From assembly GCA_025966525.1 (NCBI GenBank), contig JAPDIG010000001.1:13435-77434 (forward strand): a DNA stretch of 64,000 nucleotides. The letters run 5' to 3'. Position numbers and translations under genes: made by a program. Source of the stretch: Candidatus Methanophagales archaeon. GTDB lineage: Archaea; Halobacteriota; Syntropharchaeia; Alkanophagales; Methanospirareceae. Below, piece after piece: positions 14,781-62,920 of this stretch; position 1 is the first letter of the stretch, and each line of letters starts with the position of its first letter. The notes below the pieces were generated by a model, which saw nothing but the letters and a program-made list of their open reading frames with translations, was not told the origin of the DNA and did no database searches.

Positions 14781-14915
14781 ATTCTCCAACACAACCATCC
14801 CCCACTGTACACAATCAAATGTGGAGATAAAACGAAGAAGCGGTATAGTATAAAGCTAGCAGTTGCAGATTACGAATTTGCTAAAAGTTTCGCAAGTGCA
14901 CTAAGGAAAATAGGT

Positions 14916-15365
14916 TTGCATCCCCATACATGGAAAGAGAAAAATGTAAGGAAGGGGAGAGAAAACGAACAAAAACTGTGGCATACCGAAGCGAATAGTA
15001 AAACTTTCGTCCGTTTTTTCTTATCGTTAAAAGATGACTGGAATGAGTTTGAAAAGTTCGTTAGAAGCTGTCCGAAAGGAAAAGAAATGTTCTTGCGAGG
15101 GTTCTATGAAAGTGAGGGACACCATGGAGTGTATGTTTATCGGAATAGTAAAGGAATTCGACGCGTTAGAGAGCTGCATTTCACTAATACTAACCCTCAC
15201 TTAGTTAAAATAACAATATCGTTTCTGCGCGAATTGGCATTCCATCCCTATACTTCTATCGAAAAGCGAAGACAGCTCGGCTGGAAAGATTGCATAACTA
15301 TCCGTCTCCCACCAAGAGAGCACAGGAGATTCCTCGCTCTTATATCACCAGTTATCAAAAAATAA
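14916..15365 (+). CDS. LAGLIDADG-like protein. The frame is open back to 14778, immediately after the MITE, so the 5' region may be disrupted
   Basis: FLRGFYESEGHH is paralogous to LRGFFEAEGSV in the 2879..3670 gene. The in-frame upstream extension RYSIKLAVADYEFAKSF abuts the MITE right end. Confidence 0.35.
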   Translation: MHPHTWKEKNVRKGRENEQKLWHTEANSKTFVRFFLSLKDDWNEFEKFVRSCPKGKEMFLRGFYESEGHHGVYVYRNSKGIRRVRELHFTNTNPHLVKITISFLRELAFHPYTSIEKRRQLGWKDCITIRLPPREHRRFLALISPVIKK

Positions 15366-20196: not shown

Positions 20197-23100
20197 TCAG
20201 TCAAGAACCGTTATCGAAGCGCCTTTGGGTTCAGACTCGAATGTGACGGTTTTTGTTACTGCTCCTTTCTTCAGATACGCTTTTACTATGAAGTTACGGC
20301 AATATAACCCGTGTGCGGGCATTGAAGGTTCAGTGCCATAGCATGAAGCACCCGTTGATATGGCAGCCTCGCATGAGATACCCGAATCCGACACGGAGAT
20401 AACCATTTCTAATGTTTCATGCCCGCTAGCAACGGCTTTTATATAATGCCTGCCGTATGGGATGAGCTCGCCCGTCGCTATCTCCTTATATGTGGCGCCG
20501 GCAATATCATAAGGCTTGTAATAGAATGTTGCACTGATATAAGAACCGTCGGTGCCTGAATATGCCGATAAGTATATATATGCAGCCTTACACACTTTCA
20601 CAACCGTTGTTTCGTTTGCTTTCACATCCACAGAGAACGCACATGATGGTGAGAAGCAACGGTCAAGTATATCCACATAGCAATGATTGAATTCGCCTTC
20701 CTTACCTACTACCTCTACCGTATGTGGACCTGCGGGCACTGTCGCTGTTACTGCCGAGCCACCACCTTTATCAACACCGTCAATAAGGAAAGTTTCAACA
20801 TCACACGGCTTCTTAAACACGATTGACTCGAAAGTCATTATGGTTAGTTTGCCCTCAGGTGGCGGCGTTGTCACTACTTTAGCGGTGATTTTATGCGTTG
20901 CTGTCCCACAATTTGGCGGAGTTGCATTGTTACACGCTTCCAGGCGAATACCCCATACTCCAACCTTGTCAAAAGTATGAGTTATCGTCTTACCTGTCTT
21001 TTCGGTTTCAATACCGTCAGGGTCACTAATCGTCCATGTCCACGAAGTGACTTTATATGGGTCTTCGGTAGACGCCATGCCGATTAGGGTTGCCGACTCG
21101 CCGACGTTGACGGTGTTGGGAGCGATAATCCTTACATTTTTCACCGCTGGTGGCGCACCTGGACATACGGGGAAAGTATCTCTACCGGTATCCGAACCAG
21201 CATAATAAGCATAGATCATGTCAGCATCGTTACTTGTCACTTCACCATCGTCATCAACATCCGCCCGCTCCTTGAATTCCGACTCCGATAATCCTCCTAC
21301 TTTATCTTTAACGGCACCCCAGCCGAGTTCTACATAATCCATAACGAGTTTTGCATCCTCGTCTGTAACATAATTATCGGGGTCGTTGTTAACATTACCG
21401 TAGTTACCGCAGGGCGATTTTCTGTATTCGTACGCTTTTGAGACAGTAATTGTCCTGTGCACATCGATTGTTCCCGCACAGATTTTGAGATGTACCTCGT
21501 AACTGCCGGCTTCTGTGAATGTGTGTGTAACCACCCGTCCAGTCTTTTTGACATCGTGCGGGAACACCCATTCCCAATCAGTTATTTCTGAATCGTCACA
21601 GCCTTTTGCATGACCTTCAAAAGTCGCTTCTACACCTACTCGCACGCTTTCACGTGCTCCTGAATAATAATTGAACCATGCTCCCGTTGCCGGACATGGC
21701 TTTCTCCACTTGGGGTCCCATATCCTTGTCTTTTTAAGTCTTGCTGAGTTCTCAGCATTAACATATTCATCTTTTATCTTGTTATTGGTAGCATCCCAAA
21801 CATGTTTATTTTTATCATAGACGAATAGAACGGCATAACCTTCCTTCAGCTCTTCTATGCCAATATTTGTTGTACCTTTAAAAACAGCAGCTATCAAGCG
21901 AGGAGTTTTGTGTTTTAAGTCCCATTGTCTCTCGCTGTCGGACTTCAATGTAATATTTGTGCCGACAGGAAGCATATTAGCAAGCCATGCATTCGCTCGA
22001 GCATAAAACACGCTATCAACATACCAGAGTTCCTCGGATATACATTCCTCGCCGGGTGTTACTAACCGCCTGACAAGCCACGGCTCCTTCTTCTTCGTGC
22101 ATATATAAACATAGTCTGGTCCTTCTGGACTGTTTATACCTACAATGCGTACGCAATATGGCGTACCAGCATGCCGAATATGTATAGTATCGGCATCTTT
22201 GTGCTTAAGCACAGTTGCTGTTATCACTTCATTTAATTCTGGCACATAAACATCTGGTGGCCATCCTCCCGGCGGCTCTAGTGGTGCTATACAGCCTGCG
22301 CTTCGAACAGCAAAGGTATATTCATTACGATATACTGACCATGCTGTACGCACTTGATTACGCATGAATTCGTTTGGTTCACCTATCGAAACGCCATACA
22401 ATGTTGCATACAAGTTTATTGCCTCATTACGCTTGGTAGGATCAACAGCGTCAGCAATGTTCTTAAGTCTTTCTAACTCTTCAAGCATGGCTATATAATC
22501 ACGCTGAACTGTGGGGTCACAGGGGTTGTCTCGTATTTGGAATCCCAATGTCTTTAGCTTATCCTCTACAATCGCAAACTGCTCGCCAAAAGTTTTCTCG
22601 ATAACTCCTGCTTTACGCCCCACATAAACATTCATCACTAAATTGTCTAAAATATACCAAGTGCCACAGAACGCAGCAAAGCCTAATGCACCTGCAAGTA
22701 TTGGATGTTTCTTAATCTTAGCAAGGAGCCCTTTTTCTAGTTGCTTGCCAGTCTTTATTGCACCTGTAGCAAATCCTCTTGCTATGTCTATTTGAGCACT
22801 TAAAGCGGTCTTTGCTAGTTCATTCGCTATCTCCTCACTAGCTCCTGTGGCGATAGCGCGTTCGTATATATCGTCATACATAGCTTTTCCGTATAGCCAG
22901 AACAATCTATTCAATTCAGCAGTCTCTTCTATTGAGTCCAGTCCCAACGCATTGAAAACTTCTTCACCGCGTTTATCGCCAAGAACTTTTTTAAACTCCT
23001 CACGCAAGTTCTTGAACCAGTTCCTTCTTTCCGTTGCCTCCTCTGGAGTGAGTGGTTTAATATGCTTAGCAATTTCATCTGGATCATCAAAATGCTCAAA

Positions 23101-26100
23101 CTTTTTCATCAAAGCGTTAGAGTATCCCTTTTTAAAGAATTCGGGGTCTTTTAGTATCACATATCTAAATAATTCGCTTGGGTCCGCATATCTACCCTCT
23201 TTGTCTAGTTTCCTAGCAATCTTATCTATCGTGCCAGCATCTAACAGCTTTTTCAACTCATCAGTAGTTAACACATCAGAAATGTCTTTCGGTGCTTTAC
23301 GCCAAGGCATCCTGTTCTTTATACCTGCCCATATACTTCTCCAGAAGTCGTGTCCAAACCCAGAACCGGCAGCAGACTTGTTTGTTAGCTCTTTCCAAAA
23401 ACCTAGCAGGCTGTTTCTATGCTTTAAAAGTACTTCAAAAGTTTTTTTATCCGCAGGTAGTCCAGCTAGGTACTCAAAATACCCTAAAACTTCTTTATTC
23501 TTACCGGCAGCGAGTAGTTCGTTTATTTGCTTAACATCTTCAGGTTTCATGGCAGCTATTGCCATGAAAGTCTTTTTATATCCTTTTTTCGTTGTATCTA
23601 GCGTGAAACCCGCGTCGTATAACGCTTTTGTAAATTCAAACAAGTCTAATGTTTCACCATCTATTATTAGTTTTCCATCTTCTGCCAACCCTACTATCTG
23701 GTTTAGCTTGCACCAATGGCCTGGGCTACAAACGGCATCTGCCGCCTTTATGAACACTGTTATATTTTTTGTTCTATCACCATACCGCAATGTGTAGATA
23801 TACGCGGGATATGCCTCGTCTAATAGTCTTGCGTACGCATCAGGCCAATCGTGAAGCCTCTCTAAAGCATTACGATATGCTGAATACGCCCCTGTCCCCT
23901 CATACATAGCTTCGAGTCGTTCAAGATCAAAATACGCTAGTGCATCGTCGATCTCTTCTGCGAAATCTTCAACATTTCGTGCTGTTACCGTGCCTATATT
24001 CCATACATCATCAAGCATACCAGCGGCAACATCTAAATCACCATTTCTTAAATAAGATATATACTCGTCTTTCAAATCGTCAGATGCCACGCGCCAAAAA
24101 TACCAGAATTTTTCTTCACTGAACGCATCACGAACGATTTGCTTGATCTCCTCGTCAGCATAAGCGGCAATTTCACTAAACATCAGCCCAGTCTCCGAAA
24201 AGTCACCAACACGGTGTGCTCTATTAAAAGCCGTTATTATTAATCCATATTCGTCTACGGTAGGCTCAGCTATATTGCCAGCTATATCCTTACCATATTT
24301 AACCTTTTGGTATGCATCGAAAAAAGTACCATACGCTTCTGCTCTCTTCGCAAGCTCGAATGCGCCATCCCAATTGTTATACAACACATTTGCTAATCTT
24401 TTTGCGTTTCCATACCGTATATCGGCATAACCAATTTCAGCAAGCACTGACCTTGCAGTATCCTTTATGGCTTTTTCCAGATCAGCAATCTCTTTCGCCT
24501 GCTTAGGATCAATATTCTTAATCTGCTTCTCAAGCTCATCCAGCCACCGATTGAACTTATTTATCGCTTCCCAATCTTCAATTGCAGGATTTCTAAGGAT
24601 GGCTTCTCCCAATTCTTTAGCTCTTTCTATGTCACCATCAGCAATCGCTTTCGCCCATAAATCCAATTTCGCTTCGTCGCCATACACCAGTATTCTATAA
24701 GCCTCTGTTGGATTTGCCTCTATGAATTCTCTAACCGCAGCAACATCATCACCGTGCTTAACGCCCTTCCTTATGATTTTGCCCAGATATTTCGTTATCT
24801 TACCGCCCGGTACCATCGGTAATACTGAACACACCACAACTATCGGGAACATAGCGAGCTCGAACGCATCGGGATGGTACTCTGCACCGTATATGTCCTT
24901 ACCCCTGATAACCCCAGAAATCACATCTGCACAATATATCGGGTCCAGCATCTCTGCCCAGAATCGGCGGCACTCGTCTGAATCCTTTGGTATGCCCATG
25001 AGCTCACAAGCTTCACCAAAGACTCCATAACGAGAGTAAAGATATATGTCTTTCGTACCCTCAAACTTGCCGCACCAGACAGGACCGGTAGGTAAAAATC
25101 CTTTTGCTATATTCGGTCCTATACCATAGGTTTCTCCTTCTACTAGCCCATCATCTTTTGTAAATACTACCTCACCATCCGGGTATTTATCCGGCTTTTT
25201 TTCGTGTATATCCGTCCCCGGCGCTGGTATAAAACATCGTGACCACGCATATGCACGCCTGCATAGCACTGTATCCCCTTCTTTAAACCCTTTCGTGTGT
25301 ACAATAAACTTATCCTCCTCCGTGATTGGTCTAAGCGTGAACTCGAACTCATAAGTGCCTTCTCCTTCGCCATTCCCGCCCTGACGCCGCGTTGTCTTGA
25401 CTTCTGTCCAATCCTCATGCATATCACTATTCAAATACCCCGGCTTGCCCGCTATGAATCCGTATCTACAAGCCGCTCCGGGCAGTGATGGCAACCCTAT
25501 GCTAAGGACGCCTTCATCATCGGTCTTGAGAAGGTTACCATAGCCTTTCCAGCTCTCGGTAGTGCATACCCCTTTATGTACCGTTATGTCAGAGCAGGGT
25601 ACTTCCTGCCATGTGCCTTCAAAAATCTCTTTCGTAACGCTTACATACGCATGTTCTATACCATTCCCTTCCTCGTCCTTTACTGTTGTCCTTATTTCGT
25701 ATGGCGATTGCGCTTGCGTTTCAAAATCAAACTCATCATCAGACGGGCAGCCCTGTATAATCTGTCCGTCTTTGATATGGAAGCTATAATCTTTACCATA
25801 ATCCATATCAACATTGCAATCCAAAAGGAACTGTTCGGATTCATCTGTACCCAATGTTATAGAACTAGTTTCGATACCTATTGTATTCTCGGTACTGCAG
25901 CCTTTACCCTCGCGCAGCCACAGACAGCGCTTATCCGAAGCACCACCCATGTTCTTTATTATTATCTTGAACAGTGGGCGTTTGCAATCGCCTAAGTCTA
26001 TTGTACCACCTTCCGTAACGCCCCAAAAGGTTATACCATTGTCCGTGCTATAATACACTTCTTTAATCTCAAGCTTGGGTGGGGGTGTTGTCACAGTTAT

Positions 26101-27111
26101 CGTAAAAGTGCATTCAGACTCTTTATAATCAGCATCACCCTTAAACTTCGCCTTAATCGTTGCCGTCTCCTCTACACTGCATGTATATGTGATAGAACAC
26201 TTACCTTCGGGATTCGTAGCACACGAACCTATGCTGACTTCTGTGCTATCCACTAACTTATAGAACTCTATCCACCTGCCATCAAGCGGTCTTTTCGGTG
26301 ATATTGCATCTGTCAAAAGCACTTCTAAATCTACCGTATCGCCAACAGTGGCAGTCTTATGTGGATCTATGCATGTCAGTTCTGTATACGCCTTTGGTAG
26401 CTGAACCCTAAGATGAATAGCATCCGTCGTGTCGTGAGTATAACATGTCCCACCCTCGTATGAACCACAATGTAATACTGCATCTTTGTCTGATGAGGGC
26501 ATACTGAAAGTGCAATCCGGCATACGCACCCACGATTTACCTGCATCTATATCTTTCGTCTTCGGACCACAACGATAATAGTTGCCCCATACAACACCGT
26601 AGCAGGCTGTGCCTGATACATTATTTGTGTTCCTCACCCACGCTCTTGCGGTCAGCGTAGCACCAGCTGGCGCTCTAAGTGTAGAGCCAGGCTTATACAC
26701 ATGGCCGTTGTACCATATATACGCATAATTAAATTTGTATTCTGGTAGTGGCTTACCTATTTCGATAGTCCACGAATATTTCGTTTCCTTGAGCTCGCCT
26801 TGTCTATCAGGATCACCTAACCACAGCTCCACTTTTGCCGTGCCTGATTTGCTCGGTGTGCATCCGATTGCTGGTAATTTCTTTGTCTGGTCTTTGCACG
26901 GTACTGTATCGAACCGTCTGCAAACTTCTGTCGAGTCTATCAGTAGCCGGACTGTTACACTTATTTGGCTAACCTTTGTGTATGTGCACCGGACTTTTGC
27001 ATGTAGCCAAAAAGTTTCGCCAGCGGTAACTGTGATCGTACTTCCTAAGTTATATCGCTTGCCCCCGTAATAGATATATGGGTCCTCATCGAATTTTACC
27101 GTTCCAGGCAT
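20197..27111 (-). CDS. Giant (2304 aa) multi-domain cell-surface protein with Ig-like/PKD domains, a dockerin-type Ca-binding repeat and an embedded staphylococcal-nuclease-like (SNase) domain
   Basis: SNase motifs HKDADTIHIRHAGTPYCVRIVGINSPE and DLKHKTPRLIAAVFKGTTNIGIEELKEGYAVLF. PKD-like WEWVFPHD...THTFTEAGSYEVHLKI. Dockerin-like DVDDDGEVTSNDADMIYAYYAG. Two hydrophobic segments, and a long Lys/Glu/Ala-rich helical middle region. Confidence 0.65.
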   Translation of the reverse strand: MPGTVKFDEDPYIYYGGKRYNLGSTITVTAGETFWLHAKVRCTYTKVSQISVTVRLLIDSTEVCRRFDTVPCKDQTKKLPAIGCTPSKSGTAKVELWLGDPDRQGELKETKYSWTIEIGKPLPEYKFNYAYIWYNGHVYKPGSTLRAPAGATLTARAWVRNTNNVSGTACYGVVWGNYYRCGPKTKDIDAGKSWVRMPDCTFSMPSSDKDAVLHCGSYEGGTCYTHDTTDAIHLRVQLPKAYTELTCIDPHKTATVGDTVDLEVLLTDAISPKRPLDGRWIEFYKLVDSTEVSIGSCATNPEGKCSITYTCSVEETATIKAKFKGDADYKESECTFTITVTTPPPKLEIKEVYYSTDNGITFWGVTEGGTIDLGDCKRPLFKIIIKNMGGASDKRCLWLREGKGCSTENTIGIETSSITLGTDESEQFLLDCNVDMDYGKDYSFHIKDGQIIQGCPSDDEFDFETQAQSPYEIRTTVKDEEGNGIEHAYVSVTKEIFEGTWQEVPCSDITVHKGVCTTESWKGYGNLLKTDDEGVLSIGLPSLPGAACRYGFIAGKPGYLNSDMHEDWTEVKTTRRQGGNGEGEGTYEFEFTLRPITEEDKFIVHTKGFKEGDTVLCRRAYAWSRCFIPAPGTDIHEKKPDKYPDGEVVFTKDDGLVEGETYGIGPNIAKGFLPTGPVWCGKFEGTKDIYLYSRYGVFGEACELMGIPKDSDECRRFWAEMLDPIYCADVISGVIRGKDIYGAEYHPDAFELAMFPIVVVCSVLPMVPGGKITKYLGKIIRKGVKHGDDVAAVREFIEANPTEAYRILVYGDEAKLDLWAKAIADGDIERAKELGEAILRNPAIEDWEAINKFNRWLDELEKQIKNIDPKQAKEIADLEKAIKDTARSVLAEIGYADIRYGNAKRLANVLYNNWDGAFELAKRAEAYGTFFDAYQKVKYGKDIAGNIAEPTVDEYGLIITAFNRAHRVGDFSETGLMFSEIAAYADEEIKQIVRDAFSEEKFWYFWRVASDDLKDEYISYLRNGDLDVAAGMLDDVWNIGTVTARNVEDFAEEIDDALAYFDLERLEAMYEGTGAYSAYRNALERLHDWPDAYARLLDEAYPAYIYTLRYGDRTKNITVFIKAADAVCSPGHWCKLNQIVGLAEDGKLIIDGETLDLFEFTKALYDAGFTLDTTKKGYKKTFMAIAAMKPEDVKQINELLAAGKNKEVLGYFEYLAGLPADKKTFEVLLKHRNSLLGFWKELTNKSAAGSGFGHDFWRSIWAGIKNRMPWRKAPKDISDVLTTDELKKLLDAGTIDKIARKLDKEGRYADPSELFRYVILKDPEFFKKGYSNALMKKFEHFDDPDEIAKHIKPLTPEEATERRNWFKNLREEFKKVLGDKRGEEVFNALGLDSIEETAELNRLFWLYGKAMYDDIYERAIATGASEEIANELAKTALSAQIDIARGFATGAIKTGKQLEKGLLAKIKKHPILAGALGFAAFCGTWYILDNLVMNVYVGRKAGVIEKTFGEQFAIVEDKLKTLGFQIRDNPCDPTVQRDYIAMLEELERLKNIADAVDPTKRNEAINLYATLYGVSIGEPNEFMRNQVRTAWSVYRNEYTFAVRSAGCIAPLEPPGGWPPDVYVPELNEVITATVLKHKDADTIHIRHAGTPYCVRIVGINSPEGPDYVYICTKKKEPWLVRRLVTPGEECISEELWYVDSVFYARANAWLANMLPVGTNITLKSDSERQWDLKHKTPRLIAAVFKGTTNIGIEELKEGYAVLFVYDKNKHVWDATNNKIKDEYVNAENSARLKKTRIWDPKWRKPCPATGAWFNYYSGARESVRVGVEATFEGHAKGCDDSEITDWEWVFPHDVKKTGRVVTHTFTEAGSYEVHLKICAGTIDVHRTITVSKAYEYRKSPCGNYGNVNNDPDNYVTDEDAKLVMDYVELGWGAVKDKVGGLSESEFKERADVDDDGEVTSNDADMIYAYYAGSDTGRDTFPVCPGAPPAVKNVRIIAPNTVNVGESATLIGMASTEDPYKVTSWTWTISDPDGIETEKTGKTITHTFDKVGVWGIRLEACNNATPPNCGTATHKITAKVVTTPPPEGKLTIMTFESIVFKKPCDVETFLIDGVDKGGGSAVTATVPAGPHTVEVVGKEGEFNHCYVDILDRCFSPSCAFSVDVKANETTVVKVCKAAYIYLSAYSGTDGSYISATFYYKPYDIAGATYKEIATGELIPYGRHYIKAVASGHETLEMVISVSDSGISCEAAISTGASCYGTEPSMPAHGLYCRNFIVKAYLKKGAVTKTVTFESEPKGASITVLD

Positions 27112-48831: not shown

Positions 48832-49962
48832 TTACGGGCTGGAAGCCTCACCCTTCAGGGCGAGGAGGGAAGCCCGCATCGCAATATTCCTCGCAGCATT
48901 TAAGTCCCTATCCAGCTGAAATCCACATTTCGGGCATTTAAACCATCTACCATTAACCCTGCTCCTAGTGTAACCACATCTTGAGCAAGTCCTTGATGTG
49001 CTCCTCGGATTCACAAACTTAACAGGAACTCCGTTTAGTTTTGCTTTATATTCAATCTTCGAGATTAAGTCACGGTAAGCCCATTTATGGAGTCTTTTCC
49101 GGTGTCTCCTACCAACCTTTCTCCTTCTTAGCCCTTTTAAGCTTTCTATTGCTATCCCTGACCTCCTATGCTTCGCTAGTTTAACAAGCTCCTTCGCAAT
49201 ACTATGATTGATATAACTCATCTTGCTTCGATTCTTGTGCGAAAGCCTTTTAAGAACCCGCCACGCACCCTTATTGGTTTCTGTATCTTTCGCTTGCTGC
49301 ATATCCGCTCTTTTTAACTCTACTCTTTTTTTCCAGCTTATCGCATTATCATAGAACTTATTGATCTTACCCTCCATATCTGAGATAACTATGATATGAT
49401 TAATACCTATATCTACGCCTATCCACCCCTTCGGCTCGTAAGGTTCAGGCTCCTCAACCTCAGCACTTATAAACACATAATAGTCTTTCTTGATATGCGA
49501 AATCTGAACTCTCCTATGGGTGAGTTTAAGAAAGTGCTTTAGTTTAGGTGGAACATGCATTGGCAACCACACTCTTCGCCCGTTTAGTAATGGCACATTA
49601 ATGAAATGCCCCTCGATCTTGACATTTACCGCTTTGAAACTGACTATTTCCGCTTTAAAGATAGGTTTCTCGCCTTTTTTAGGATTTCTGAGCCAAGCCC
49701 TATAGGTTTCAATAGCCCTATTCATCGCTTCTTGTACAACATCTGAATTTAAGTCCTTGAATTTCTCTCTAACCCTTTTGTAAGCAAAAGCATGGATGTT
49801 CCCTCTTGTCGGATATTCTCCCAAATCTTCTATCGCTCTAAGCCAATCATTAGCACATTTTTTGAACCTGTTGATGGTTGCATCTAAGGACTCCCTCTTC
49901 GCCCTGTTCAACCTCATCAATTTGAACTTTTGTGTGAGTTTCATATTATACACTATGACCAT
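48832..49962 (-). CDS. tnpB: TnpB (IS200/IS605 OrfB family), third and diverged copy
   Basis: WIGVDIGINH (RuvC-I), CSRCG...CPKCG zinc finger, and DRDLNAARNI (RuvC-III). Confidence 0.7.
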   Translation of the reverse strand: MVIVYNMKLTQKFKLMRLNRAKRESLDATINRFKKCANDWLRAIEDLGEYPTRGNIHAFAYKRVREKFKDLNSDVVQEAMNRAIETYRAWLRNPKKGEKPIFKAEIVSFKAVNVKIEGHFINVPLLNGRRVWLPMHVPPKLKHFLKLTHRRVQISHIKKDYYVFISAEVEEPEPYEPKGWIGVDIGINHIIVISDMEGKINKFYDNAISWKKRVELKRADMQQAKDTETNKGAWRVLKRLSHKNRSKMSYINHSIAKELVKLAKHRRSGIAIESLKGLRRRKVGRRHRKRLHKWAYRDLISKIEYKAKLNGVPVKFVNPRSTSRTCSRCGYTRSRVNGRWFKCPKCGFQLDRDLNAARNIAMRASLLALKGEASSP

Positions 49963-50201
49963 AATGGTATATAAATATTTATATAGACATGAAGCATATC
50001 ATTAAGTGATGATGCTTTGGGGCATGCCCCGGGGCGGATGGGCGCCTGACCCGCCCAGATGCGGTCTACCGCAACCGAAGTTCCCATGTTGGGAACCTCC
50101 CTGCTTTAGCGGGGAGAGGAGGTCAGCGTTTATTATCTGCCGATGTAACTCCAGTTCGTTTTTCGCACCCACATAACCCATTGAATTTATAAAATAGTCG
50201 C

Positions 50202-52664
50202 TCATTGATGCACCTCCTGATTATTCTCACTATGCTCTCGCGCTATCTCTTCCGCACATGCCGAGCAAACAAGATGCTTCTTACCCTCATGCAACCACTC
50301 ATGATCCAACCATGTCTTCTTACCACAGCGTTCGCATGTACCCTCTGTTACCTCTGAATGGAAGCCTATTACATCTTGCTCACTCGGCTGCTCGTTACTG
50401 CCACTTGACTTTTCCTTCTTTATATTGCCTTCCTCATCTAAATCCTTTATATTCACATATCTTGTCTTCTTCTCCTTCATGTCCTCTTCTTGCTCCTCCT
50501 TTTTGTCGCCAATCTCTTTTCCAAATTCAAGTATGTTTTGTTCTTCTTCTTTCTTCTTAATGAGCATTCCCTCCCAGCACCATACTCTCTTTCCTCCTAT
50601 TGTCTTTCGTCCAGTCTTCACCGGAGCATATCCTTGCAATAACGATCCAAACCTTCCTTTTGAGACAACAGGAAGTCTATTATCCTTGCAGTAAGTAACG
50701 AATGCACTGTAAGTCTCGTCTTTCGTTACATAGCCCTTAGGATCCACCACTACCATATCATGCACAAACGCAAGCACCGGATTTGACTTCCTAATATAGT
50801 CCTCCATTATCTCTTCCGCTACTTTCGAATTTGAAAAATCACGCTTTGTAAGTAAATTCTTAAGATGCTCTAAGACAAGATTGAAGAACCCCGAAAGCTC
50901 TTGTGATGTGGTCAGCTTTTCTAAGATGTTCGGGTCACGCTTCTCGCCTTCAAACCGATTCGGAAAGTTCACAAGTATCCACCGTCTAAAGAAAGCAATG
51001 GTAGTATCAGACGCCATCGGAAGCTGGTTCGCACTGAAAATTAACTTCGCTGTTGGAAGAAACTCGAAATGGTCTTTAAACTTTTTCTCCGCTGAAATTG
51101 TATCCCCCCCTGTTAGCATCTTGAAAAATCCTGTCTTCCTAATAGCTGAAGCTGGTAAATCTGATGACAAATTTGCTAACTTACCATACAAAGATGCTGA
51201 AGCGAATCTGTTTTCCGTAAGTTCCTGTAACGGAATCGCTGCAGTATTCTCTCGCCCTAAAAAAGCTCTTATAAGCTCTATCATCGTGCTCTTACCATTA
51301 CTGCCTTCTCCAAGAAGCATTACTGCCTTCTGCATCTTCTGCTCCGGTATCATGCAATAGCCTACAAACTCTAACACTGGAGGAATATCGTCCGGGTGTA
51401 AGACTTCACTCAAAAACTTCTCTATCTTTTCGCATTTCGCTGATTTGTTATATTCCACAGGCAGGCAGTAGGTAAAGTAGTACTCAGGCGCTAATGGTAA
51501 TAATTGGCCTGTCTCAAGGTCATATACCCCATTCAATAGAGGTATCTTCCGTTTCTCTCGATTTAGAAGTGAACGCTCAACATATGTGCTACGCTGGATA
51601 TATGCTATCACTTCATTCACAAGATGAACGCTTATTCTCTCCTTCTCTAAGTCTTGTAGAGTGCGCTGTAACAGCTCCTTGATCCGTACTTCGCCACCAA
51701 ACTTCCATTTGCGACCGTCCCACCATAAGACCTCCTCAGTATCCCGCAGTGTAATAAAACGATTCCCTTCCATTATCAGCTCCGCAAGCGCGGAATGCGA
51801 AATCCTCTTCTTCTCTTCGTCTCTTTTCAAAAAGCTCACTCCCGTGAGCTCCTCAATCTTCCTTACCGCCTCCGTGAAATCCAGACCTTCCTTTTCCTCT
51901 ATGAACGATATGATGTCACCACTTCTGTTGCACCCGAAGCAATACCACGAATTCGTCTGCTCATACACCGTAAATGACGGCTCATGGTCGTTATGGAACG
52001 GGCAAAGCCCCTGCCAGTAATCCCCATATGCCCTCTTCGGCTCTACATACTTCTTTATAATTTCCATTCCCACTCGCTCTTTAAACTCCTCTATCGGCTT
52101 TGATCGCTTTGATTTCAACGCTACTATTCGCCCCTTCTCTTCAATTTTGTCCAATCCGTGATAGCTCTTCCACCGCTTTTCTATCTCTTCAAATAAACCG
52201 GGCTTCACATGGCGTATCTCCAACGGCGATGTAGCAAAATGCTCGTATTCACGCCCGGTTGGATGCACTGAACCACACATTACCACATACGAACCCTCAC
52301 CTTGAAACCTTAGCTCTTCGCTCCCTTCCCACATTAATGATTTGCGCTTCATTGGCTTGTCCGTGCGCACATAGAGATGATACCCCTTCCCTGTCTTCAC
52401 TGTGAATGTTGCACCTGCAAGTTCGCCCAAGTTCAACTTCGTAAATAATTCTTCTTTGTCTACATCTATCACTACTAAGTTGCCTGATATTGACCCGCAA
52501 ACCGCCCCGTAGTTTCTCGTTCCGTTGTTCTTCCAATACTCTATCTCCTCCTCGGTCGGGTGCCTCTTCATGTATTCTTCCCACTTTATCGCTGGCTTCT
52601 TATCGCGCTCCTTTAGGGGAAAAAAACTTATATTCCAGCTTCTATATATTTTTATCCAGTCCAT
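50202..52664 (-). CDS. Replication protein: fusion of a primase-polymerase (Prim-Pol) domain, a CHC2 zinc finger and an SF3 (D5/P4-alpha-like) helicase
   Basis: LVVIDVDKE plus TGKGYHLY are Prim-Pol motifs. CPFHNDHEPSF...CFGC is a CHC2 finger. Walker A MLLGEGSNGKST. Length 820 aa. Confidence 0.75.
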   Translation of the reverse strand: MDWIKIYRSWNISFFPLKERDKKPAIKWEEYMKRHPTEEEIEYWKNNGTRNYGAVCGSISGNLVVIDVDKEELFTKLNLGELAGATFTVKTGKGYHLYVRTDKPMKRKSLMWEGSEELRFQGEGSYVVMCGSVHPTGREYEHFATSPLEIRHVKPGLFEEIEKRWKSYHGLDKIEEKGRIVALKSKRSKPIEEFKERVGMEIIKKYVEPKRAYGDYWQGLCPFHNDHEPSFTVYEQTNSWYCFGCNRSGDIISFIEEKEGLDFTEAVRKIEELTGVSFLKRDEEKKRISHSALAELIMEGNRFITLRDTEEVLWWDGRKWKFGGEVRIKELLQRTLQDLEKERISVHLVNEVIAYIQRSTYVERSLLNREKRKIPLLNGVYDLETGQLLPLAPEYYFTYCLPVEYNKSAKCEKIEKFLSEVLHPDDIPPVLEFVGYCMIPEQKMQKAVMLLGEGSNGKSTMIELIRAFLGRENTAAIPLQELTENRFASASLYGKLANLSSDLPASAIRKTGFFKMLTGGDTISAEKKFKDHFEFLPTAKLIFSANQLPMASDTTIAFFRRWILVNFPNRFEGEKRDPNILEKLTTSQELSGFFNLVLEHLKNLLTKRDFSNSKVAEEIMEDYIRKSNPVLAFVHDMVVVDPKGYVTKDETYSAFVTYCKDNRLPVVSKGRFGSLLQGYAPVKTGRKTIGGKRVWCWEGMLIKKKEEEQNILEFGKEIGDKKEEQEEDMKEKKTRYVNIKDLDEEGNIKKEKSSGSNEQPSEQDVIGFHSEVTEGTCERCGKKTWLDHEWLHEGKKHLVCSACAEEIAREHSENNQEVHQ

Positions 52665-53107
52665 CTCTCTCCCCTCCCTCTCTTCTTCAAAGTGTCCAGG
52701 ATGTCCAAGAAGTCTACCCCCTATATTTTTACCTATATACTATTCTACTACTTACTTATATTTTTATGCATAAATATAGTGAGTGGACACTCTGGACTTC
52801 CTGGACACTTTAGTCATTCTCCCCCGAGAGCCGTCCTTTCCTCCTCTGAGAGAGCTTATTTTTTCTCCCCTCTCCGGCGTTATTTTTTCCTCCTCTCTCA
52901 AGGCTTCCTCCAGTGGAAATATAGATATACATTTCCACTGCATTTCCACTGCAACTCAGAGAGGTATATAGAAACAATAGTTTCTAAAAAATCTATATAG
53001 TTTAAACTATCAGTGCGCGTTTAACACATTATACTTTTTAAACGCTTTTTCTTTTTTCATGTAAAACGTAGTAATATCATTGTTCCTATCTGTTTATAGT
53101 AATAGGT
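52665..53107. promoter_or_regulatory. Divergent intergenic region with iteron-like direct and inverted repeats; a putative replication origin plus promoters
   Basis: TGGACACT appears twice and TCCTGGACA / TGTCCAGGA appear as inverted copies. catttccactg occurs twice, ttattttttc(t/c)cc twice, and there is the palindrome tagtttaaacta. The region sits between the replication gene and the plus-strand gene array. Confidence 0.45.
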
Positions 53108-53793
53108 GTGGGTAGGATGCCGATAGAGCTTGAAGAAAAGGAGAAAGAAATAACGGTAAGAGCGAGAAGAGGAAGCGCCATAATTGGAGATGGTGGCAGG
53201 AAAATCACGGTAATAGGGGTATGGAGCGGGAAGGAGTTGAAAGAGCTTGTGGATGTGGTAGAGCGAGTCAGGAAGCGGCATCTCGTGGTGGAGCGAGAGG
53301 ATTAGCGGCAGGAGCGGTCAAAAAACGAAAGAATAAAAATGAAACAAATAAGGATTTCAGAACTGGATAGGATAGCGGAGCGTAAGGAGACAATCCCGAT
53401 TGCGGCAGTATTCGTGCTGCGGAACGAATACGATAGTGATTGGAAGTGCGTTACGGATAGCGAGGAGATACATGAATGGATAGAGTTTGCGAAGGGGTGC
53501 AAGAGTTGCGGGGTCAAGCTCCATTACGAGCCCGTGGATGATGCATTTGTGATGGAAATCATTATGGATCCTGTTCCAAAAGAAGAGGTGTATGAAACAG
53601 CGAAGGTAGAAGCGAGGAAAGAGATTTTGTGTGTGTCTAACCGTATAGGGAGGAGGTATGAGGATGAGGATGGGTGGGTGTGGTATGGGTGGTGATATGT
53701 TCGGTTAGTGGATATGTACAGAAAATCGAGGAAGTGTATAGTTATCGCAAGTTTTATATACTCACACCAAAATATATTATTGAGGTGATACAC

Positions 53794-59421: not shown

Positions 59422-59856
59422 ATGAACTACATAATAAAGAAAGGATTGAGATTTATGATGGTGAAAGAAGCGACCGAGGAGAAGTTAAACAGTCCAGAGA
59501 AAGTCTATCGGTTTATGCTGGGCGAAGCCAAGATAGACCGAGAATGCGTCTGGGTGCTACATATGAACACCAAACTCAAACTGATAGAAAAGGAGTTAGT
59601 GAGCATGGGCACGCTCGACGCAGCTCCTGTGCATCCTCGTGAAGTCTTCAAGAAGGCGATACTGAACAGCAGCTCCAGTATAATCGTTGTTCATAACCAT
59701 CCGAGCGGGGATCCAACGCCGACCGAAGAAGACAAGAAGATTGCGAAAGTGCTGAAACAATCAGGTGAGATATTGGATATTCCACTTAAAGATTTTATTG
59801 AGATAAGCAGTGAGGGTTATACGAGCTTCGCAAAAGAGATGATAGGGGAATGGTAA
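59422..59856 (+). CDS. RadC-like JAB/MPN-domain protein
   Basis: HNHPSGDPTPTEEDKKIAKVL matches the JAMM motif HxHPSG...PSxxD. Confidence 0.6.
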   Translation: MNYIIKKGLRFMMVKEATEEKLNSPEKVYRFMLGEAKIDRECVWVLHMNTKLKLIEKELVSMGTLDAAPVHPREVFKKAILNSSSSIIVVHNHPSGDPTPTEEDKKIAKVLKQSGEILDIPLKDFIEISSEGYTSFAKEMIGEW

Positions 59857-59900
59857 AAAACGAACTAAATGAAAACAAATATAAGGAGGGGGATTGGGAA

Positions 59901-60161
59901 ATGGATATAACAAAGCAGAAAAACCAAAACGATGAAAAGAGCAAAAAGGAAACGGAAGAAATAATGACAATCAATGAAGCTATTAGAGTGTTGGCAATAA
60001 TTGCGTATTTTGAAAAGGAGGTTGGTGGTGAGATACCTCATCCGCTGAGAATTTTCAAGCGCCGAAGATGGATGCGCGAGTTTGAAGCGTTCCAAAAAGG
60101 TTTTGAGCTTGGACAGAAGTATGCGCAGAGGATAATAGAAAGCCAAGAAGAAAACGACTAA
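59901..60161 (+). CDS. hypothetical protein
   Basis: Start reassigned to the ATG after the RBS aaggaggg. Shares the upstream motif with the next two genes. Confidence 0.35.
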   Translation: MDITKQKNQNDEKSKKETEEIMTINEAIRVLAIIAYFEKEVGGEIPHPLRIFKRRRWMREFEAFQKGFELGQKYAQRIIESQEEND

Positions 60162-60189
60162 AAATAAATATAAGGAGGTGAATTGAGAG

Positions 60190-60399
60190 ATGAACGAATT
60201 TGATATAACCGAAGGTGGAACTATCGAATTTTATTATCTGACGAGGAAATCAGACGGTAGAAGGTTCACTTGCATGCTGTATTACGATCCGACATTAGAC
60301 TATGAAGGCGAAATCATTGAAGCGCATGATGAAAAAACAGTCACTAAAGAGGAAAAAGAGGCGGTGAAGAAAGCGATCCAAAAGTTCTTAGGAAATTAA
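60190..60399 (+). CDS. hypothetical protein
   Basis: 69-aa ORF after the RBS aaggaggtg. Confidence 0.35.
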   Translation: MNEFDITEGGTIEFYYLTRKSDGRRFTCMLYYDPTLDYEGEIIEAHDEKTVTKEEKEAVKKAIQKFLGN

Positions 60400-60459
60400 T
60401 CACTTGCGAAAATAAAAAACGAACCAAACAAAAATAAATATAAGGAGGTGGATTTGGAA

Positions 60460-60939
60460 ATGGTGAATTGTGTAGAAGAATCGGCAGAAAATAAAGAGAA
60501 AGAATTAGAAATGTGCCACTTGTGGGTAGAGAGGGATTTCTCAAGCATACCTGTTGCTTTAATAGAGAAAGCATACAAAGATGACTATTACGATGAGATA
60601 GAGATTCTCGCGCCTACATTCGAGGATTACAAGAAGGAATATCGAGAAGAACATCAATGCGAAGTGGAATGTGATGAATGCCCTAATGAGTCATGTTTGG
60701 AAGCGTATGAAGAGTGGTATCCAAAGATTCCTATGTGGGGATGGGTATTCGCACCCAAGGATCCGTGTGATAGAGAATGGATAAGAATGCACGCCGATAA
60801 GGTTGCCGATTGCGGTTTTATCGTATACGAAACCGATGAGATTGGTGTGTACCTTGGTGTCAACGGTGCAGGCTACGACTTTTACGAAGCGCACTGGCTA
60901 CCGCTGTACAGAGCACGAGGATTGAAATGGCATATATAA
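60460..60939 (+). CDS. hypothetical Cys-rich protein
   Basis: Start reassigned to the ATG after aaggaggtg. Contains CEVECDECPNESC. Confidence 0.35.
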   Translation: MVNCVEESAENKEKELEMCHLWVERDFSSIPVALIEKAYKDDYYDEIEILAPTFEDYKKEYREEHQCEVECDECPNESCLEAYEEWYPKIPMWGWVFAPKDPCDREWIRMHADKVADCGFIVYETDEIGVYLGVNGAGYDFYEAHWLPLYRARGLKWHI

Positions 60940-61720: not shown

Positions 61721-61954
61721 ATGCCAAAATGCCCGAAATGTGGGAAAGAGATAGACTATCTAAGGGATCTCATGTTGGAAGAATTCAAATTGACAGTTGA
61801 CGAGAACGGCTATGTTCATTACGAGCTTGTTGACGCTTCGGTTCTTAATCGTGGCGATGAATATAAATGCCCCAAATGCTCTGCGCTTCTATTCAGAGAT
61901 GAGAAAGAAGCGGTAAAGTTCCTCAGGGGCGAAACATCACAAAAACGAGAGTAG
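61721..61954 (+). CDS. Zinc-ribbon protein
   Basis: MPKCPKCGKEIDY...KCPKCSALLF. Confidence 0.4.
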   Translation: MPKCPKCGKEIDYLRDLMLEEFKLTVDENGYVHYELVDASVLNRGDEYKCPKCSALLFRDEKEAVKFLRGETSQKRE

Positions 61955-62920
61955 CGTGCGCTGGTTGGGATCCCAAGTGCTACTCGTAAGCGGCTTTTCC
62001 ACGCTATCATCACCAACTCCTCGCCTGTTCAGTCTCCTCATCTCCAGATAGTATTCATAAGCTTTGTTTTTTATCCACTGTGAGCGAGTGTGGTTGGTAA
62101 TGCACTTGCGATAGAATTCCATCCCTAAATCCGCCTGTTTCTGTTTGACAATAAGAAATGGCCGCACTTGCTTGAGTATTTTATATGTCTTTTCACCACC
62201 CACGCTCCAAACTTTGAGATCTTTCCAATTTTTTGTTTTATATCTCCTCCATGATGTCCAACCACCATAGTTCGCTTCGAGCCAGTCAATTAGCCGAGTG
62301 TCGGTGTTCGCTATTACCAGTCCGAGAAGATAGGCATAATAATTCTTTGAAGGTTGGCTGGCGTGGTAAATAAAAATCATCCCTTCTGCATCAATGACTG
62401 AAGCGAGATAAATCAATTTTTCCCTCTCGGTTAACTCCAGTATCTCTCGTTTTGTGTGTGATTCACATGCTATGCAACCACTTTTTCCACGAGCATTCAA
62501 TTCATGCATTTTGGCATGGTACGTTTCCTCTCTTGATATTAACCATCTCGGTCTTAATACCCCTTTCTGTTTCAACCTGATACAATTCCGGTAGAAGTCT
62601 ATTGCTAATTCTGCTTGTCGGTCTTTTAATAAAAGATATGGTTGAACATCGCAGATTAACTTATATGCATCTTTGTCATGCAAACGCCACTGCTTTAACG
62701 GCTTGCATGTCGTAGGAGGGTTGCATCCGTTTTTTACTTTACCGCGAAAGTTCCTAATTAGCCACCGTATTATATCAAGATTTGTACTTGATATATCAAG
62801 GTTAAGCTGGTATGCTTTTCGTCCCGCTGATAGATACTGCCGTATGCTAATACAACCGTCACAATCGATATAACCCGCTAAATAGATTAGCTTCTCCCGC
62901 TTATTCATCTCTCCTGTCAT
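61937..62920 (-). CDS. Double-motif LAGLIDADG homing endonuclease (free-standing)
   Basis: Two dodecapeptides, LIYLAGYIDCDGCI and LIYLASVIDAEGMI. Confidence 0.65.
   Translation of the reverse strand: MTGEMNKREKLIYLAGYIDCDGCISIRQYLSAGRKAYQLNLDISSTNLDIIRWLIRNFRGKVKNGCNPPTTCKPLKQWRLHDKDAYKLICDVQPYLLLKDRQAELAIDFYRNCIRLKQKGVLRPRWLISREETYHAKMHELNARGKSGCIACESHTKREILELTEREKLIYLASVIDAEGMIFIYHASQPSKNYYAYLLGLVIANTDTRLIDWLEANYGGWTSWRRYKTKNWKDLKVWSVGGEKTYKILKQVRPFLIVKQKQADLGMEFYRKCITNHTRSQWIKNKAYEYYLEMRRLNRRGVGDDSVEKPLTSSTWDPNQRTLLSFL

Follow-up and report, generated by a model that had tools for sequence, protein, structure and literature searches.

The stretch of DNA analysed here, referred to as the window, is 64,000 nt long and carries a gene encoding a primase-helicase of 820 aa on its minus strand. 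Upstream of the gene lies an intergenic region of 452 bp (52665-53116), extending up to the ATG at 53117 of a divergent operon on the plus strand, whose first gene (53117-53305, 62 aa) has no informative Pfam match. The primase-helicase gene and its parts, identified by ORF and profile searches, are as follows.

50202..52664, minus strand: primase-helicase gene, 820 aa
52230-52634, minus strand: PrimPol domain, aa 11-145 (Pfam Prim-Pol, 9.8e-19)
51831-52094, minus strand: CHC2 zinc ribbon, aa 191-278 (Pfam Zn_ribbon_DnaG, 2.3e-23)
51399-51776, minus strand: D5_N, aa 297-422 (Pfam)
about 50835-51317, minus strand: SF3 ATPase, aa 450-610 (Pfam DUF5906, the SF3 helicase core, at aa 450-561)
50559-50822, minus strand: RFX-like winged helix, aa 615-702 (weak Pfam RFX/Pox_D5 match, aa 625-702)
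aa 706-764 of the primase-helicase, minus strand: disordered linker
50265-50369, minus strand: C-terminal CxxC...CxxC zinc ribbon, aa 766-800

The combination of a Prim-Pol core, a CHC2 zinc finger and a D5/P4-type helicase, which had been proposed in the initial annotation, is borne out by Pfam, TIGR01613 and the PriRep5 profile. The protein scores 217.5 bits against TIGR01613, the model of the P4-family primase C-terminal region (cut-off 108.7), and 68.8 bits against PF09250 of the PrimPol clade (cut-off 22.8), while D5_N (70 bits) and DUF5906 (77 bits) both exceed the Pfam cut-offs and PF01807 (DnaG-type CHC2) reaches 82 bits. The PrimPol motifs VIDVD (aa 65-69, D67-x-D69) and GYHLY (aa 94-98, H96) are kept across 15 homologues, among which the zinc ligands C221/H224/C242/C245 of the CHC2 ribbon are invariant. 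All the motifs required of an SF3 ATPase (Walker A GxxxxGK[ST], Walker B Asp, motif C Asn and the Arg finger) were found, at G452...G457-K458-S459-T460, D502, N546 and R561; in the same 15 homologues these residues are either invariant or conserved at 90% or more, and they align with those of PriRep5. In profile comparisons, the best-matching region (aa 288-688) was aligned to SaPI5 PriRep5 (7OLA) with E 4e-40, and the alignment extends into the C-terminal domain of PriRep5, chain residue 747. The prim-pol domain of pRN1 ORF904 was matched at E 2e-14, and the DnaG zinc-binding domain 1D0Q at E 2e-21 by the CHC2 ribbon. For the AF2 model of the protein (pLDDT 76), the Foldseek matches were 7OLA (top), ASFV C962R and MPXV E5. 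Its aa 608-706 (pLDDT 84) superpose on the RFX DNA-binding domain with TM 0.81 and rmsd 2.3-2.5 A, and the fold predicted by the model is a winged helix, putatively DNA-binding. Since the amino-acid identity to relatives (0.86-0.94) is far above the identity at 4-fold sites (0.53-0.73), the gene is under purifying selection. Rather than a degraded fragment, it is an intact ORF whose catalytic residues are kept and whose product has a predicted PrimPol activity.

The features upstream of the gene are as follows.

52690..52719, minus strand: proximal iteron arm, three 9-bp units TAGACTTCT / TGGACATCC / TGGACACTT
52720..52783: AT-rich spacer between the arms, 64 bp, 78% AT
52784..52819, plus strand: distal iteron arm, four 9-bp units TGGACACTC / TGGACTTCC / TGGACACTT / TAGTCATTC
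52853..52900: two direct repeats of ~24 nt with a T6/A6 tract, GCTTATTTTTTCTCCCCTCTCC / GCGTTATTTTTTCCTCCTCTCTC
52908..52953: ORB / mini-ORB-like cluster, CTCCAGTGGAAAT on the plus strand (52908-52920) and two tandem TGCAGTGGAAAT on the minus strand
52952..52999: most conserved non-coding block, GAAACTATTGTTTCTATATAcCTCTCTGAGTTG on the gene strand
53000..53116, plus strand: probable leader of the divergent operon, outside the conserved region, with the palindrome TAGTTTAAACTA and a TTTTTAAA box

The proximal arm, which reads TGTCCAGGA TGTCCAAGA AGTCT... on the plus strand, is located 26-55 nt 5' of the primase-helicase ATG and probably overlaps the primase transcription start. The distal arm is inverted with respect to it, the units of both being TGTCCAGGA-like. 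The layout that was looked for is a rep gene adjoined by an AT-rich centre with two or more iterons on either side, the two sets facing opposite ways; 3-4 units per arm were found. Within the spacer, 52721-52780 is the second least stable 60-mer of the 64-kb window (dG -60.6; mean -80.8, sd 5.5); the spacer is a candidate DNA-unwinding element and probably also contains the TATA box of the primase promoter. In relatives, the spacers are 76-85 nt long with an AT fraction of 0.71-0.87.

Several other repeats occur in the same 452 bp: TGGACACT three times (52691 on the minus strand, 52784 and 52802 on the plus strand), CCTGGACA twice, CATTTCCACTG as a tandem pair at 52930 and 52941 and once more, inverted, at 52911, two TTATTTTTTC units spaced by 24 nt (52856 and 52880), and palindromes, for example TAGTTTAAACTA near 52996. 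Every motif quoted in the initial annotation (the repeats, catttccactg and the palindrome) was located in 52665-53116. The copy number of the ~24-nt repeats differs between relatives, with ~2.5 copies in L005 (L numbers denote the relatives), and these repeats could form a DNA bend or serve as an accessory binding site. Are the repeats, then, more frequent than in shuffled sequence? None of 1000 dinucleotide-preserving shuffles reaches the observed count of repeated k-mers (k=7-10, both orientations). Moreover, 9-bp-phased TGGAC pairs occur three times in the intergenic region and not once in the other 63.5 kb, and the inverted phased-arm architecture was seen in 0/418 background windows. When single 8-mers are counted across the whole 64 kb, the enrichment is weak, and the strict 9-mer alone shows none over the whole window; it is the clustering and phasing of the repeats that is significant. 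The Rfam scan for structured RNA returned nothing in the intergenic region, its sole match being HgcC downstream of the gene.

The catttccactg repeats, judged by their sequence, correspond to the core of the archaeal origin recognition box (ORB), which had been overlooked before. Based on the ORB motifs of PMC4164010 (Table 1), PMC4153887 (Table 2) and PMC1904270, the 12-nt core (TCCAGTGGAAAT / TCCASTKGAAAY) has its sole exact match in the 64 kb at 52909-52920, and two of the four one-mismatch matches adjoin it within 45 nt. A 10-nt AT stretch separates the tandem TGCAGTGGAAAT copies (52931-52942 and 52942-52953, minus strand) from CTCCAGTGGAAAT. The 20-nt Thermococcaceae ORB motif is matched here at 17/20 positions, the sole match in the window with no more than three mismatches, and at 18/20 in L024 and L025, relatives at 40-41% identity, always 150-290 nt upstream of the primase-helicase gene; 1.18 Mb of unrelated viral DNA contain one match. 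ORB-like sites are present in many relatives and absent in several (L009, L021, L011). It should be noted that the copies in the window have neither the G-string nor the GAAACTC / GGGGT extension.

Homology to the relatives stops sharply at ~50.13 kb and at 52999, although the neighbouring genes differ; at 52999 it ends for at least eight relatives, and in some of them the upstream genes are co-directional, yet the break is the same. The adjoining 53000..53116, common only to L013 and up to 53046 also shared with L006/L007, is probably the promoter and leader of the divergent plus-strand operon. Up to the break, the non-coding blocks are 0.85-1.00 identical among relatives, compared with 0.53-0.73 at 4-fold sites. 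For the proximal arm, the identity to L005 and L006 is 0.87-0.94 against a neutral 0.65-0.73. The block 52952..52999 (0.85-1.00), which has TATA-like boxes and ends at the boundary itself, forms with the first ORB-like site an invariant run of ~55 nt in the alignment with relatives. Consistent with these breakpoints, the gene and the 335 bp upstream form a cassette of about 2.9 kb (~50.13 to ~53.00 kb) that appears to be exchanged horizontally, the gene and its upstream region being shared together between hydrothermal-vent archaeal viruses and plasmids.

Phased inverted TGTC/GACA arms were also found in relatives at 54-61% identity (L009, L021-23, L031) and even at 40% identity (L024-L029). 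In the L001 clade the arms are degenerate, and in L012, L018 and L011 (55-62% identity) they are unclear or present as unit variants. A contrast between variable iterons and an invariant ORB was considered but abandoned, since relatives with as little as 40% protein identity still have the TGTCMRGGA unit. In L009 the arms are located 214-320 nt from the ATG, which makes them more than a promoter-proximal operator. L029 is a circular, plasmid-like element of 4,112 bp, whose sole large gene encodes the primase-helicase and which has both arms and ORB; these dominate its non-coding DNA, and the arms are about 600 nt from the gene. All parts of the cassette recur in this 4.1-kb circle. The plasmid and phage collections contained no close relative (no more than 41% identity over about half of the protein), and the matches in IMG/VR did not exceed 32%.

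The nearest solved homologue is PriRep5 of SaPI5 (7OLA/7OM0), in which a primase is fused to a self-loading SF3 helicase and a C-terminal winged helix binds iterons. These iterons, 5-6 nt long, flank an AT-rich centre, those on one side pointing the opposite way to those on the other (PMC9371898). The SaPI origin and 52690-52819 share the same layout, in which iterons flank an AT-rich centre in opposite orientation beside the gene. However, the identity is ~20%, SaPI is bacterial while the present element is archaeal, and the SaPI origin is downstream of rep, whereas here it is upstream and overlaps the promoter. Unlike SaPI, the present system also has an AEP PrimPol with a DnaG-type CHC2 ribbon, an extra C-terminal zinc ribbon, 9-bp-phased units and extra ORB-like sites. 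The P4 alpha protein shares a family model with the primase-helicase (TIGR01613, "phage/plasmid primase, P4 family"). In P4, one polypeptide carries the primase, the SF3 helicase and a C-terminal origin-binding domain, and the octamer iterons that it recognises occur in ori and crr. Its primase domain is not an AEP PrimPol, unlike that described here, and the window yielded no further repeat cluster of the crr kind. As for pRN1, the prim-pol domain of ORF904 (1RNI, 3M1M) is matched as given above, and the helicase part is 35% identical to pRN1 NC_001771 in tblastn. Small circular relatives of the L029 type resemble the pRN-type cryptic plasmids. ORF904 has no CHC2 zinc ribbon, unlike the protein here, and in pRN1 the origin has been mapped to a downstream stem-loop region rather than to a pair of inverted iteron arms.

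Archaeal oriCs offer a further comparison, as the ORB core is exact, is found in both orientations, and lies near an AT-rich unwinding element beside an initiator gene (PMC1904270, PMC4164010, PMC4153887). The differences are that no orc1/cdc6 is adjacent, that the copies are mini-ORB-like and that the initiator is a primase-helicase. The plasmid and virus modules of Thermococcales (pTN2 and pT26-2, PMC2926602; viruses, PMC12934983) come from the same environment, the Guaymas and Pescadero vents. There, replication modules, primase-helicase fusions among them, are exchanged between otherwise related elements (PMC2926602, PMC12934983), and the plasmid origins are predicted in an AT-rich, repeat-rich intergenic region beside rep (PMC2926602). 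Classical ORB sequences are reported to be lacking in the Thermococcales viruses (PMC12934983), whereas ORB-core sites are conserved beside the module here.

Taken together, we consider it likely that ~50.13-53.00 kb is a self-contained, exchangeable replication cassette, in which a self-loading initiator-helicase-primase is combined with its own origin immediately upstream, probably within an archaeal mobile element of Thermococcales. The C-terminal RFX-like winged helix would read the 9-bp-phased TGTCCAGGA-type units, 3-4 on each side of the spacer and in opposite orientation. SF3 helicase hexamers would then build on both arms, melt the 64-bp, 78% AT spacer and unwind outward, while the N-terminal PrimPol and the CHC2 ribbon would make primers to be extended by the host polymerases. 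As the proximal arm covers the likely transcription start, autoregulation is expected, that is, the bound arm should also repress the gene. The three ORB-like sites, 120-260 bp further upstream, are a second conserved cis element, which may bind host Orc1/Cdc6 or the same protein. We infer the firing as an origin, the melting of the spacer, the autoregulation and the pairing of domain with repeat. That the upstream region comprises an origin and divergent promoters beside a replication gene, as originally suggested, is supported by the finding that the non-coding region travels with the gene; this reading is strengthened by its conservation above synonymous sites and by the same parts in the 4.1-kb circular relative.

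To our knowledge, hardly any origin of an archaeal virus or plasmid has been mapped. A rep gene with an iteron-rich, AT-rich origin next to it belongs to an ordinary class, and the unusual detail is the ORB-like sequences, which raise the question of whether such sites beside a non-Orc initiator engage host Orc1/Cdc6. It is possible, though we regard it as doubtful, that the origin is a hybrid, in which the TGTC iterons of the element are joined by genuine ORB sites recruiting or titrating host Orc1/Cdc6. If so, vent viruses and plasmids without Orc1 would plug into or interfere with the host initiator, which would run counter to the report that Thermococcales viruses lack ORB sequences, and would suggest a role of Cdc6/oriC in a lineage where it is dispensable for chromosome replication. 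The cassette itself combines, in ~2.9 kb with sharp recombination boundaries, a clear candidate for the unwinding element with binding sites of two conserved classes, and is found in elements ranging from a circular plasmid of 4.1 kb to one of more than 64 kb. Being compact and well bounded by comparative data, it is directly testable and may provide a replicon for thermophile vectors.

Could the repeats instead serve transcription control only, as an autoregulatory operator between divergent promoters, with the true origin elsewhere in the element? Inverted repeats around promoters are common operators, TATA-like boxes are found in the spacer and in 52952-52999, and a proximal arm lying over the start, 26-55 nt from the ATG, could be purely regulatory. 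This is nevertheless unlikely, given the distant arms of L009 (214-320 nt) and those of L029, ~600 nt from the gene and filling most of the non-coding DNA, where the origin must be. Furthermore, the spacer is an extreme low of duplex stability, the ORB-like sites are elements of origins and not of promoters, and the SaPI precedent gives such a layout to origins. We hold it to be quite improbable that the ORB cluster is the operative origin, at which Orc1/Cdc6 would load MCM, the primase-helicase being accessory and the TGTC arms regulating its expression. The exact core, the 17/20 match, the 18/20 matches in relatives at 40-41% identity and the rarity of the motif in unrelated viral DNA (one match in 1.18 Mb) do speak for this reading. 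But none of the scanned ORFs of the window has an orc1/cdc6 domain, the ORB is missing in L009, L021 and L011, and no domain of a self-loading initiator is lacking from the protein. In addition, single mini-ORBs are bound weakly by Pyrococcus Cdc6 (PMC1904270), and the copies here are without the G-string and the GAAACTC extension. Hardly credible is a coding reading of the plus-strand frame 52701-53000 (100 aa) as a small hydrophobic protein with its stop codon at the cassette boundary. The frame is open for at least 100 codons in five of the six close relatives, but its few stop codons are due to the pyrimidine-rich strand. The reading was rejected, as substitutions are even over the codon positions (13/15/14), the frame is broken in L006 and close relatives differ by 1-nt indels that put them out of frame with one another.

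Nor was the proposal borne out that 41-64 kb is a replicon integrated in or co-resident with a host chromosome, the remaining window being host DNA, which we judge very improbable. Replication genes of this sort are typical of integrative elements, and the strand bias and GC skew shift near 41 kb and 53 kb. The GC skew has its minimum at ~53 kb, but its sign flips at the plus-strand genes of 41.5-43.4 kb and at the minus-strand gene of 61.9-62.9 kb; since it follows the coding strand, it is not independent evidence of an origin. On the other hand, no tRNA was found in the window, no integrase or host housekeeping gene among the ~70 ORFs scanned over 0-64 kb (mostly those of ~90 aa or more), and no att-like direct repeats flanking 41-64 kb. 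Synteny with L015, a related contig of 39.9 kb, crosses 41 kb (39.3-41.4 and 34.9-35.9 kb), relative to which the window has insertions at 41.4-46.1 and 47.5-50.13 kb, and virus-like genes are carried by 0-41 kb. The window as a whole has the appearance of a single virus- or plasmid-like element, and may end inside it.

Within 0-41 kb, the genes include a tail-fibre family match over ~70-80 residues, a 2304-aa PKD protein, Ro60, LAGLIDADG and TnpB. PHROGs assigned 725-2869 weakly to tail-fibre families and 41487-42560 to a family of unknown function, and tblastn with 11 concatenated proteins against phages gave Ro60-like matches only. The bacterial sigma-70 promoter and terminator scan was set aside because the element is archaeal. 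Both the host and the type of the element (virus or plasmid) are what we infer here. The matches of the carbamoyltransferase at 9655-11307 bear no informative names; the TnpB, at 69% identity to that of T. nautili, points moderately to Thermococcales.

The replication gene recognised in the initial annotation proved to be real and intact. The ORF at 50202..52664(-) encodes a primase-helicase of 820 aa, with the following Pfam domains.

aa 11-145, Prim-Pol domain, above cut-off
aa 191-278, CHC2 zinc ribbon of DnaG type, above cut-off
aa 297-422, D5_N, above cut-off
aa 450-561, DUF5906, the SF3 helicase core, above cut-off
aa 625-702, RFX/Pox_D5 winged helix, sub-threshold

The protein also matches NCBIfam TIGR01613 ('phage/plasmid primase, P4 family') at 217 bits, with a cut-off of 109. 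In an alignment of 15 homologues (40-94% identity), the DxD residues (D67, D69) and H96, the zinc ligands C221, H224, C242 and C245, and the Walker A (G452...GKST460), Walker B (D502), motif C (N546) and Arg finger (R561) residues are either invariant or conserved to 90% or more. The domain order in the AlphaFold model (mean pLDDT 76) agrees with that of Pfam, and the model adds a winged helix (aa 615-702), a disordered acidic/basic linker (aa 706-764) and a small CxxC...CxxC zinc ribbon at the C-terminus. The winged-helix model (aa 608-706, pLDDT 84) can be superposed, with a TM of 0.81, on the DNA-binding domain of RFX, which is sequence-specific. Among solved structures, the nearest is SaPI5 PriRep5, a primase-helicase of a Staphylococcus aureus pathogenicity island, with a profile E of 4e-40 over aa 288-688, and it is also the top match in Foldseek.

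All the motifs quoted in the initial annotation are present in the intergenic region 52665-53116, and the suspected enrichment of repeats is confirmed, with repeated k-mers (k=7-10, both orientations) above all 1000 dinucleotide-preserving shuffles. The region is dominated by an imperfect inverted repeat (52689-52735 versus 52765-52811), both arms of which are composed of 9-bp units with the core TGGAC (reverse complement GTCCA). The elements of the region are as follows.

52716-52690, minus strand, left arm, units TAGACTTCT TGGACATCC TGGACACTT
52784-52819, plus strand, right arm, units TGGACACTC TGGACTTCC TGGACACTT TAGTCATTC
52853-52900, two ~24-nt direct repeats with T6/A6 tracts, gene-distal of the arms
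52908-52953, cluster of three CAGTGGAAAT sites, a single plus-strand copy and a tandem pair on the minus strand
52952-52999, TATA-rich block
gene-distal part of the region, palindrome TAGTTTAAACTA

Three TGGAC pairs spaced by exactly 9 bp occur here, and none in the other 63.5 kb. The spacer between the arms is 64 bp long and 78% AT, and 52721-52780 is the second least stable 60-mer in the window (nearest-neighbour energy -60.6 kcal/mol; mean -80.8, sd 5.5). An open frame at 52701-53000(+) was rejected as coding, since substitutions relative to close relatives are even across codon positions (e.g. 13/15/14) and 1-nt indels shift the frame.

The archaeal origin recognition box (ORB) has the consensus CTTCCAGTGGAAACGAAAGGGGT (PMC4153887), the Thermococcaceae ORB reads [TC]TCCAGTGGAAA[TC][GA]AA[AG]CTC (PMC4164010), and ATTTCCACTGGA is contained in the ORB and mini-ORB oligonucleotides of P. 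furiosus (PMC1904270). The 'catttccactg' repeats of the initial annotation match the ORB core. The 64 kb contain this core, TCCASTKGAAAY, in exact form just once, at 52909-52920, and two of the four one-mismatch matches fall within the following 35 nt. With no more than three mismatches, the 20-nt Thermococcaceae motif matches the window once, at the same site, and matches 1.18 Mb of unrelated viral loci once. The window copies are mini-ORB-like, because they are without the 3' extension and the G-string. Among the metagenomic loci with relatives of the gene (L001-L031), those of the window clade and of the L001 clade, as well as L018 and L024-L028 (L025 included), have ORB cores 150-290 nt upstream of it, and L009, L021 and L011 lack them. 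No orc1 gene is present among the ORFs scanned in the window, which makes the host Orc1/Cdc6 a candidate binder; the ORB cluster may bind this protein, or else the primase-helicase itself.

Close relatives of the primase-helicase were found neither in plasmid or phage collections (at most 41% identity, over partial length) nor in IMG/VR (at most 32%). Many relatives occur in hydrothermal metagenomes of the Guaymas and Pescadero basins, in identity tiers of 85-94% (proteins P0001-P0004, loci L013-L017), 54-62% (P0005-P0013) and about 40%. In these comparisons, the gene and its upstream region act as a single cassette. Between the window and at least eight close relatives, the shared blastn homology begins at ~50.13 kb, or at 50.57 kb for the 714-aa forms without the C-terminal tail, and ends at 52999 (53046 in L006/L007), and the genes flanking the cassette differ. 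The upstream genes are co-directional with the primase-helicase in L001 and L006; L001 has genes for DpdA, PAPS reductase and DUF6610, presumably a DNA-modification gene set. L001, the locus of the relative P0003, also carries five ACTGATGATAKGAGGT copies (9366-9615) just upstream of the conserved cassette boundary, a repeat that has no counterpart in the window.

Selection is visible on both the gene and the non-coding region. Between the window and its relatives, identity is 0.53-0.73 at 4-fold synonymous sites, 0.86-0.94 for the protein and 0.85-1.00 for the non-coding block 52952-52999, and the proximal (left) arm is 0.87-0.94 identical to those of L005 and L006. A strictly defined architecture, that is, at least two exact phased 5-mers per side, inverted, with the same period and 30-130 nt apart, was found in the window, L013, L014, L005, L006, L009 (61% identity) and L021/22 (57%, core GACAT), and in 0 of 418 background windows. 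The same arms are carried by L023 and L031. In L009 they are 214-320 nt from the start codon, with a third cluster at -100; therefore, the arms are not tied to the promoter.

The comparative evidence is strongest at 40% identity. The ends of L029 overlap by 127 nt at 100% identity, so that it is a circular element of 4,112 bp, whose sole large gene encodes an 806-aa primase-helicase related at that level. Its non-coding DNA contains, at 3441-3570, ATGTCAGGG ATGTCAGGG, a T-rich spacer and then GACATCCTT GACATCCTT GACATC, as well as several further TGTCAAGGA copies and an ORB, TTCCAGTGGAAATGG, ~160 nt upstream of the gene. Since L029 carries matching units, the unit consensus TGTCMRGGA is common to the window (TGTCCAGGA, both arms) and the 40%-identity relatives. 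In addition, a replicon unit of ~4.7 kb occurs three times in tandem on the 12.6-kb contig L025, in diverged copies (84-95% identity). Every copy has a primase-helicase ORF (860-966 aa), with the ORB at a matching relative position. L027 has a terminal duplication that is 91% identical. L025, L027 and L029 may stem from a small-plasmid population, from multimers or from chimeric assemblies.

The SaPI Reps are self-loading SF3 helicases that bind iterons of five or six nucleotides through a C-terminal winged helix; the SaPI origin lies directly beside the gene, its AT-rich centre flanked on either side by two or more iterons, with opposite directions on the two sides, and two hexamers are thought to load, one per side (PMC9371898). 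The window has the same layout, with iterons in opposite directions around an AT-rich centre. From this observed architecture and the RFX match of the winged-helix model, we infer binding, melting and origin firing by the cassette. The winged helix would read the TGTC units, hexamers would form on each arm and melt the spacer between them, and PrimPol and the zinc ribbon would then prime synthesis for extension by host polymerases. Binding at the proximal arm should also repress the primase-helicase gene, as this arm spans -55 to -26 from the ATG and the spacer has TATA-like boxes upstream of it; such autoregulation is likewise predicted.

The pairing of a rep gene with an adjacent AT-rich, repeat-rich origin is of a known kind, found in SaPIs, P4 and pRN1. 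The origins of pTN2 and pT26-2 are predicted beside rep, and are AT-rich and repeat-rich (PMC2926602), and primase-helicase modules are reported to be exchanged among vent viruses (PMC12934983). What is new is this primase-helicase clade, without any characterised member, its sharply bounded cassette, and conserved 9-bp TGTC-type arms traceable from a 4.1-kb plasmid to a >64-kb element. Also new are conserved ORB-core sites adjoining a non-Orc initiator, whereas according to a recent survey Thermococcales viruses lack classical ORBs (PMC12934983).

The initial annotation had set 41-64 kb apart as a probable integrated or co-resident replicon, and this division is not borne out. Nothing marks a border at 41 kb: there is no tRNA in the window, no integrase or housekeeping gene among the ~70 ORFs scanned across 0-64 kb, and no att-like direct repeats flanking 41-64 kb. 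Synteny also crosses 41 kb: the 39.9-kb contig of L015 corresponds in gene order to 46.2-47.5, 39.3-41.4 and 34.9-35.9 kb of the window, so that 41.4-46.1 and 47.5-50.13 kb are insertions in the window. Mobile-element genes are also present elsewhere in the window, namely three TnpB, several LAGLIDADG, a Ro60/vWA protein, a 2304-aa PKD protein, one protein with a match of ~70-80 residues to tail-fibre families, glycosyltransferases, methyltransferases and RadC. Therefore, the whole window looks like one virus- or plasmid-like element. A Thermococcales host is pointed to, though not decisively, by the Thermococcaceae-type ORB, the match to HgcC RNA, a TnpB 69% identical to that of Thermococcus nautili, and the fit of environment and modular replication-gene exchange with Thermococcales viruses (PMC12934983).

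The HgcC family RNA (RF00062) at 50037-50139(+) is the sole Rfam match in the 64 kb (60.9 bits, gathering threshold 50, E ~2e-11). It sits between the start of a TnpB gene (48832-49962, -) and the stop codon of the primase gene, and overlaps a 67-aa ORF that is probably spurious. Its 3' end falls at the edge of the 2.6-kb TnpB-bearing insertion, which L015 lacks, and it could represent a transposon-end RNA. The left edge of this insertion (47.5-50.13 kb) is one copy of a 301-nt element, present as an inverted pair (14481-14781 / 47504-47804, 98% identity). Partial copies (18508-18689, 20048-20105) accompany the TnpB gene 18512-19918, at its 3' end and downstream of it, and the element looks like a miniature IS200/IS605 derivative (MITE/PATE-like).

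The Ro60/TROVE and vWA protein (39297-41012(-), 571 aa) is conserved in the L015 contig at 82% nt identity and shows distant similarity to the Ro-like proteins encoded by large phages and by Halogranum tailed virus 1; Rfam gave no Y-RNA-like match near its gene. The 2304-aa ORF (20197-27111(-)) matches PKD above cut-off, and Big, SNase-like and dockerin-like domains sub-threshold. After it come glycosyltransferase-like and methyltransferase genes, and its product may serve the element as an adhesin or in receptor binding. The block 41400-46150 has no counterpart in the compared part of L015. Within it, 41487-42560(+) strongly matches the unknown-function phage family phrog_1362 (E 1e-44), and 43546-44394(-) and 44397-45938(-) have long GGTGTA-type hexanucleotide repeats at 45.1 kb, which would give low-complexity linkers; similar repeats occur at 16944 and 43652. 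LAGLIDADG homing-endonuclease-like genes are found above the Pfam cut-off at 2879-3670(-) and 61937-62920(-), with a weaker, sub-threshold match at 14916-15365(+), and L006 has a LAGLIDADG gene upstream of its primase cassette. Finally, a 55-nt intergenic unit ending AAATATAAGGAGGTG...ATG occurs in three copies (59849-59903, 60138-60192, 60408-60462), each preceding one of the consecutive small plus-strand genes, and is a putative repeated leader and ribosome-binding unit in an operon diverging from the candidate origin.
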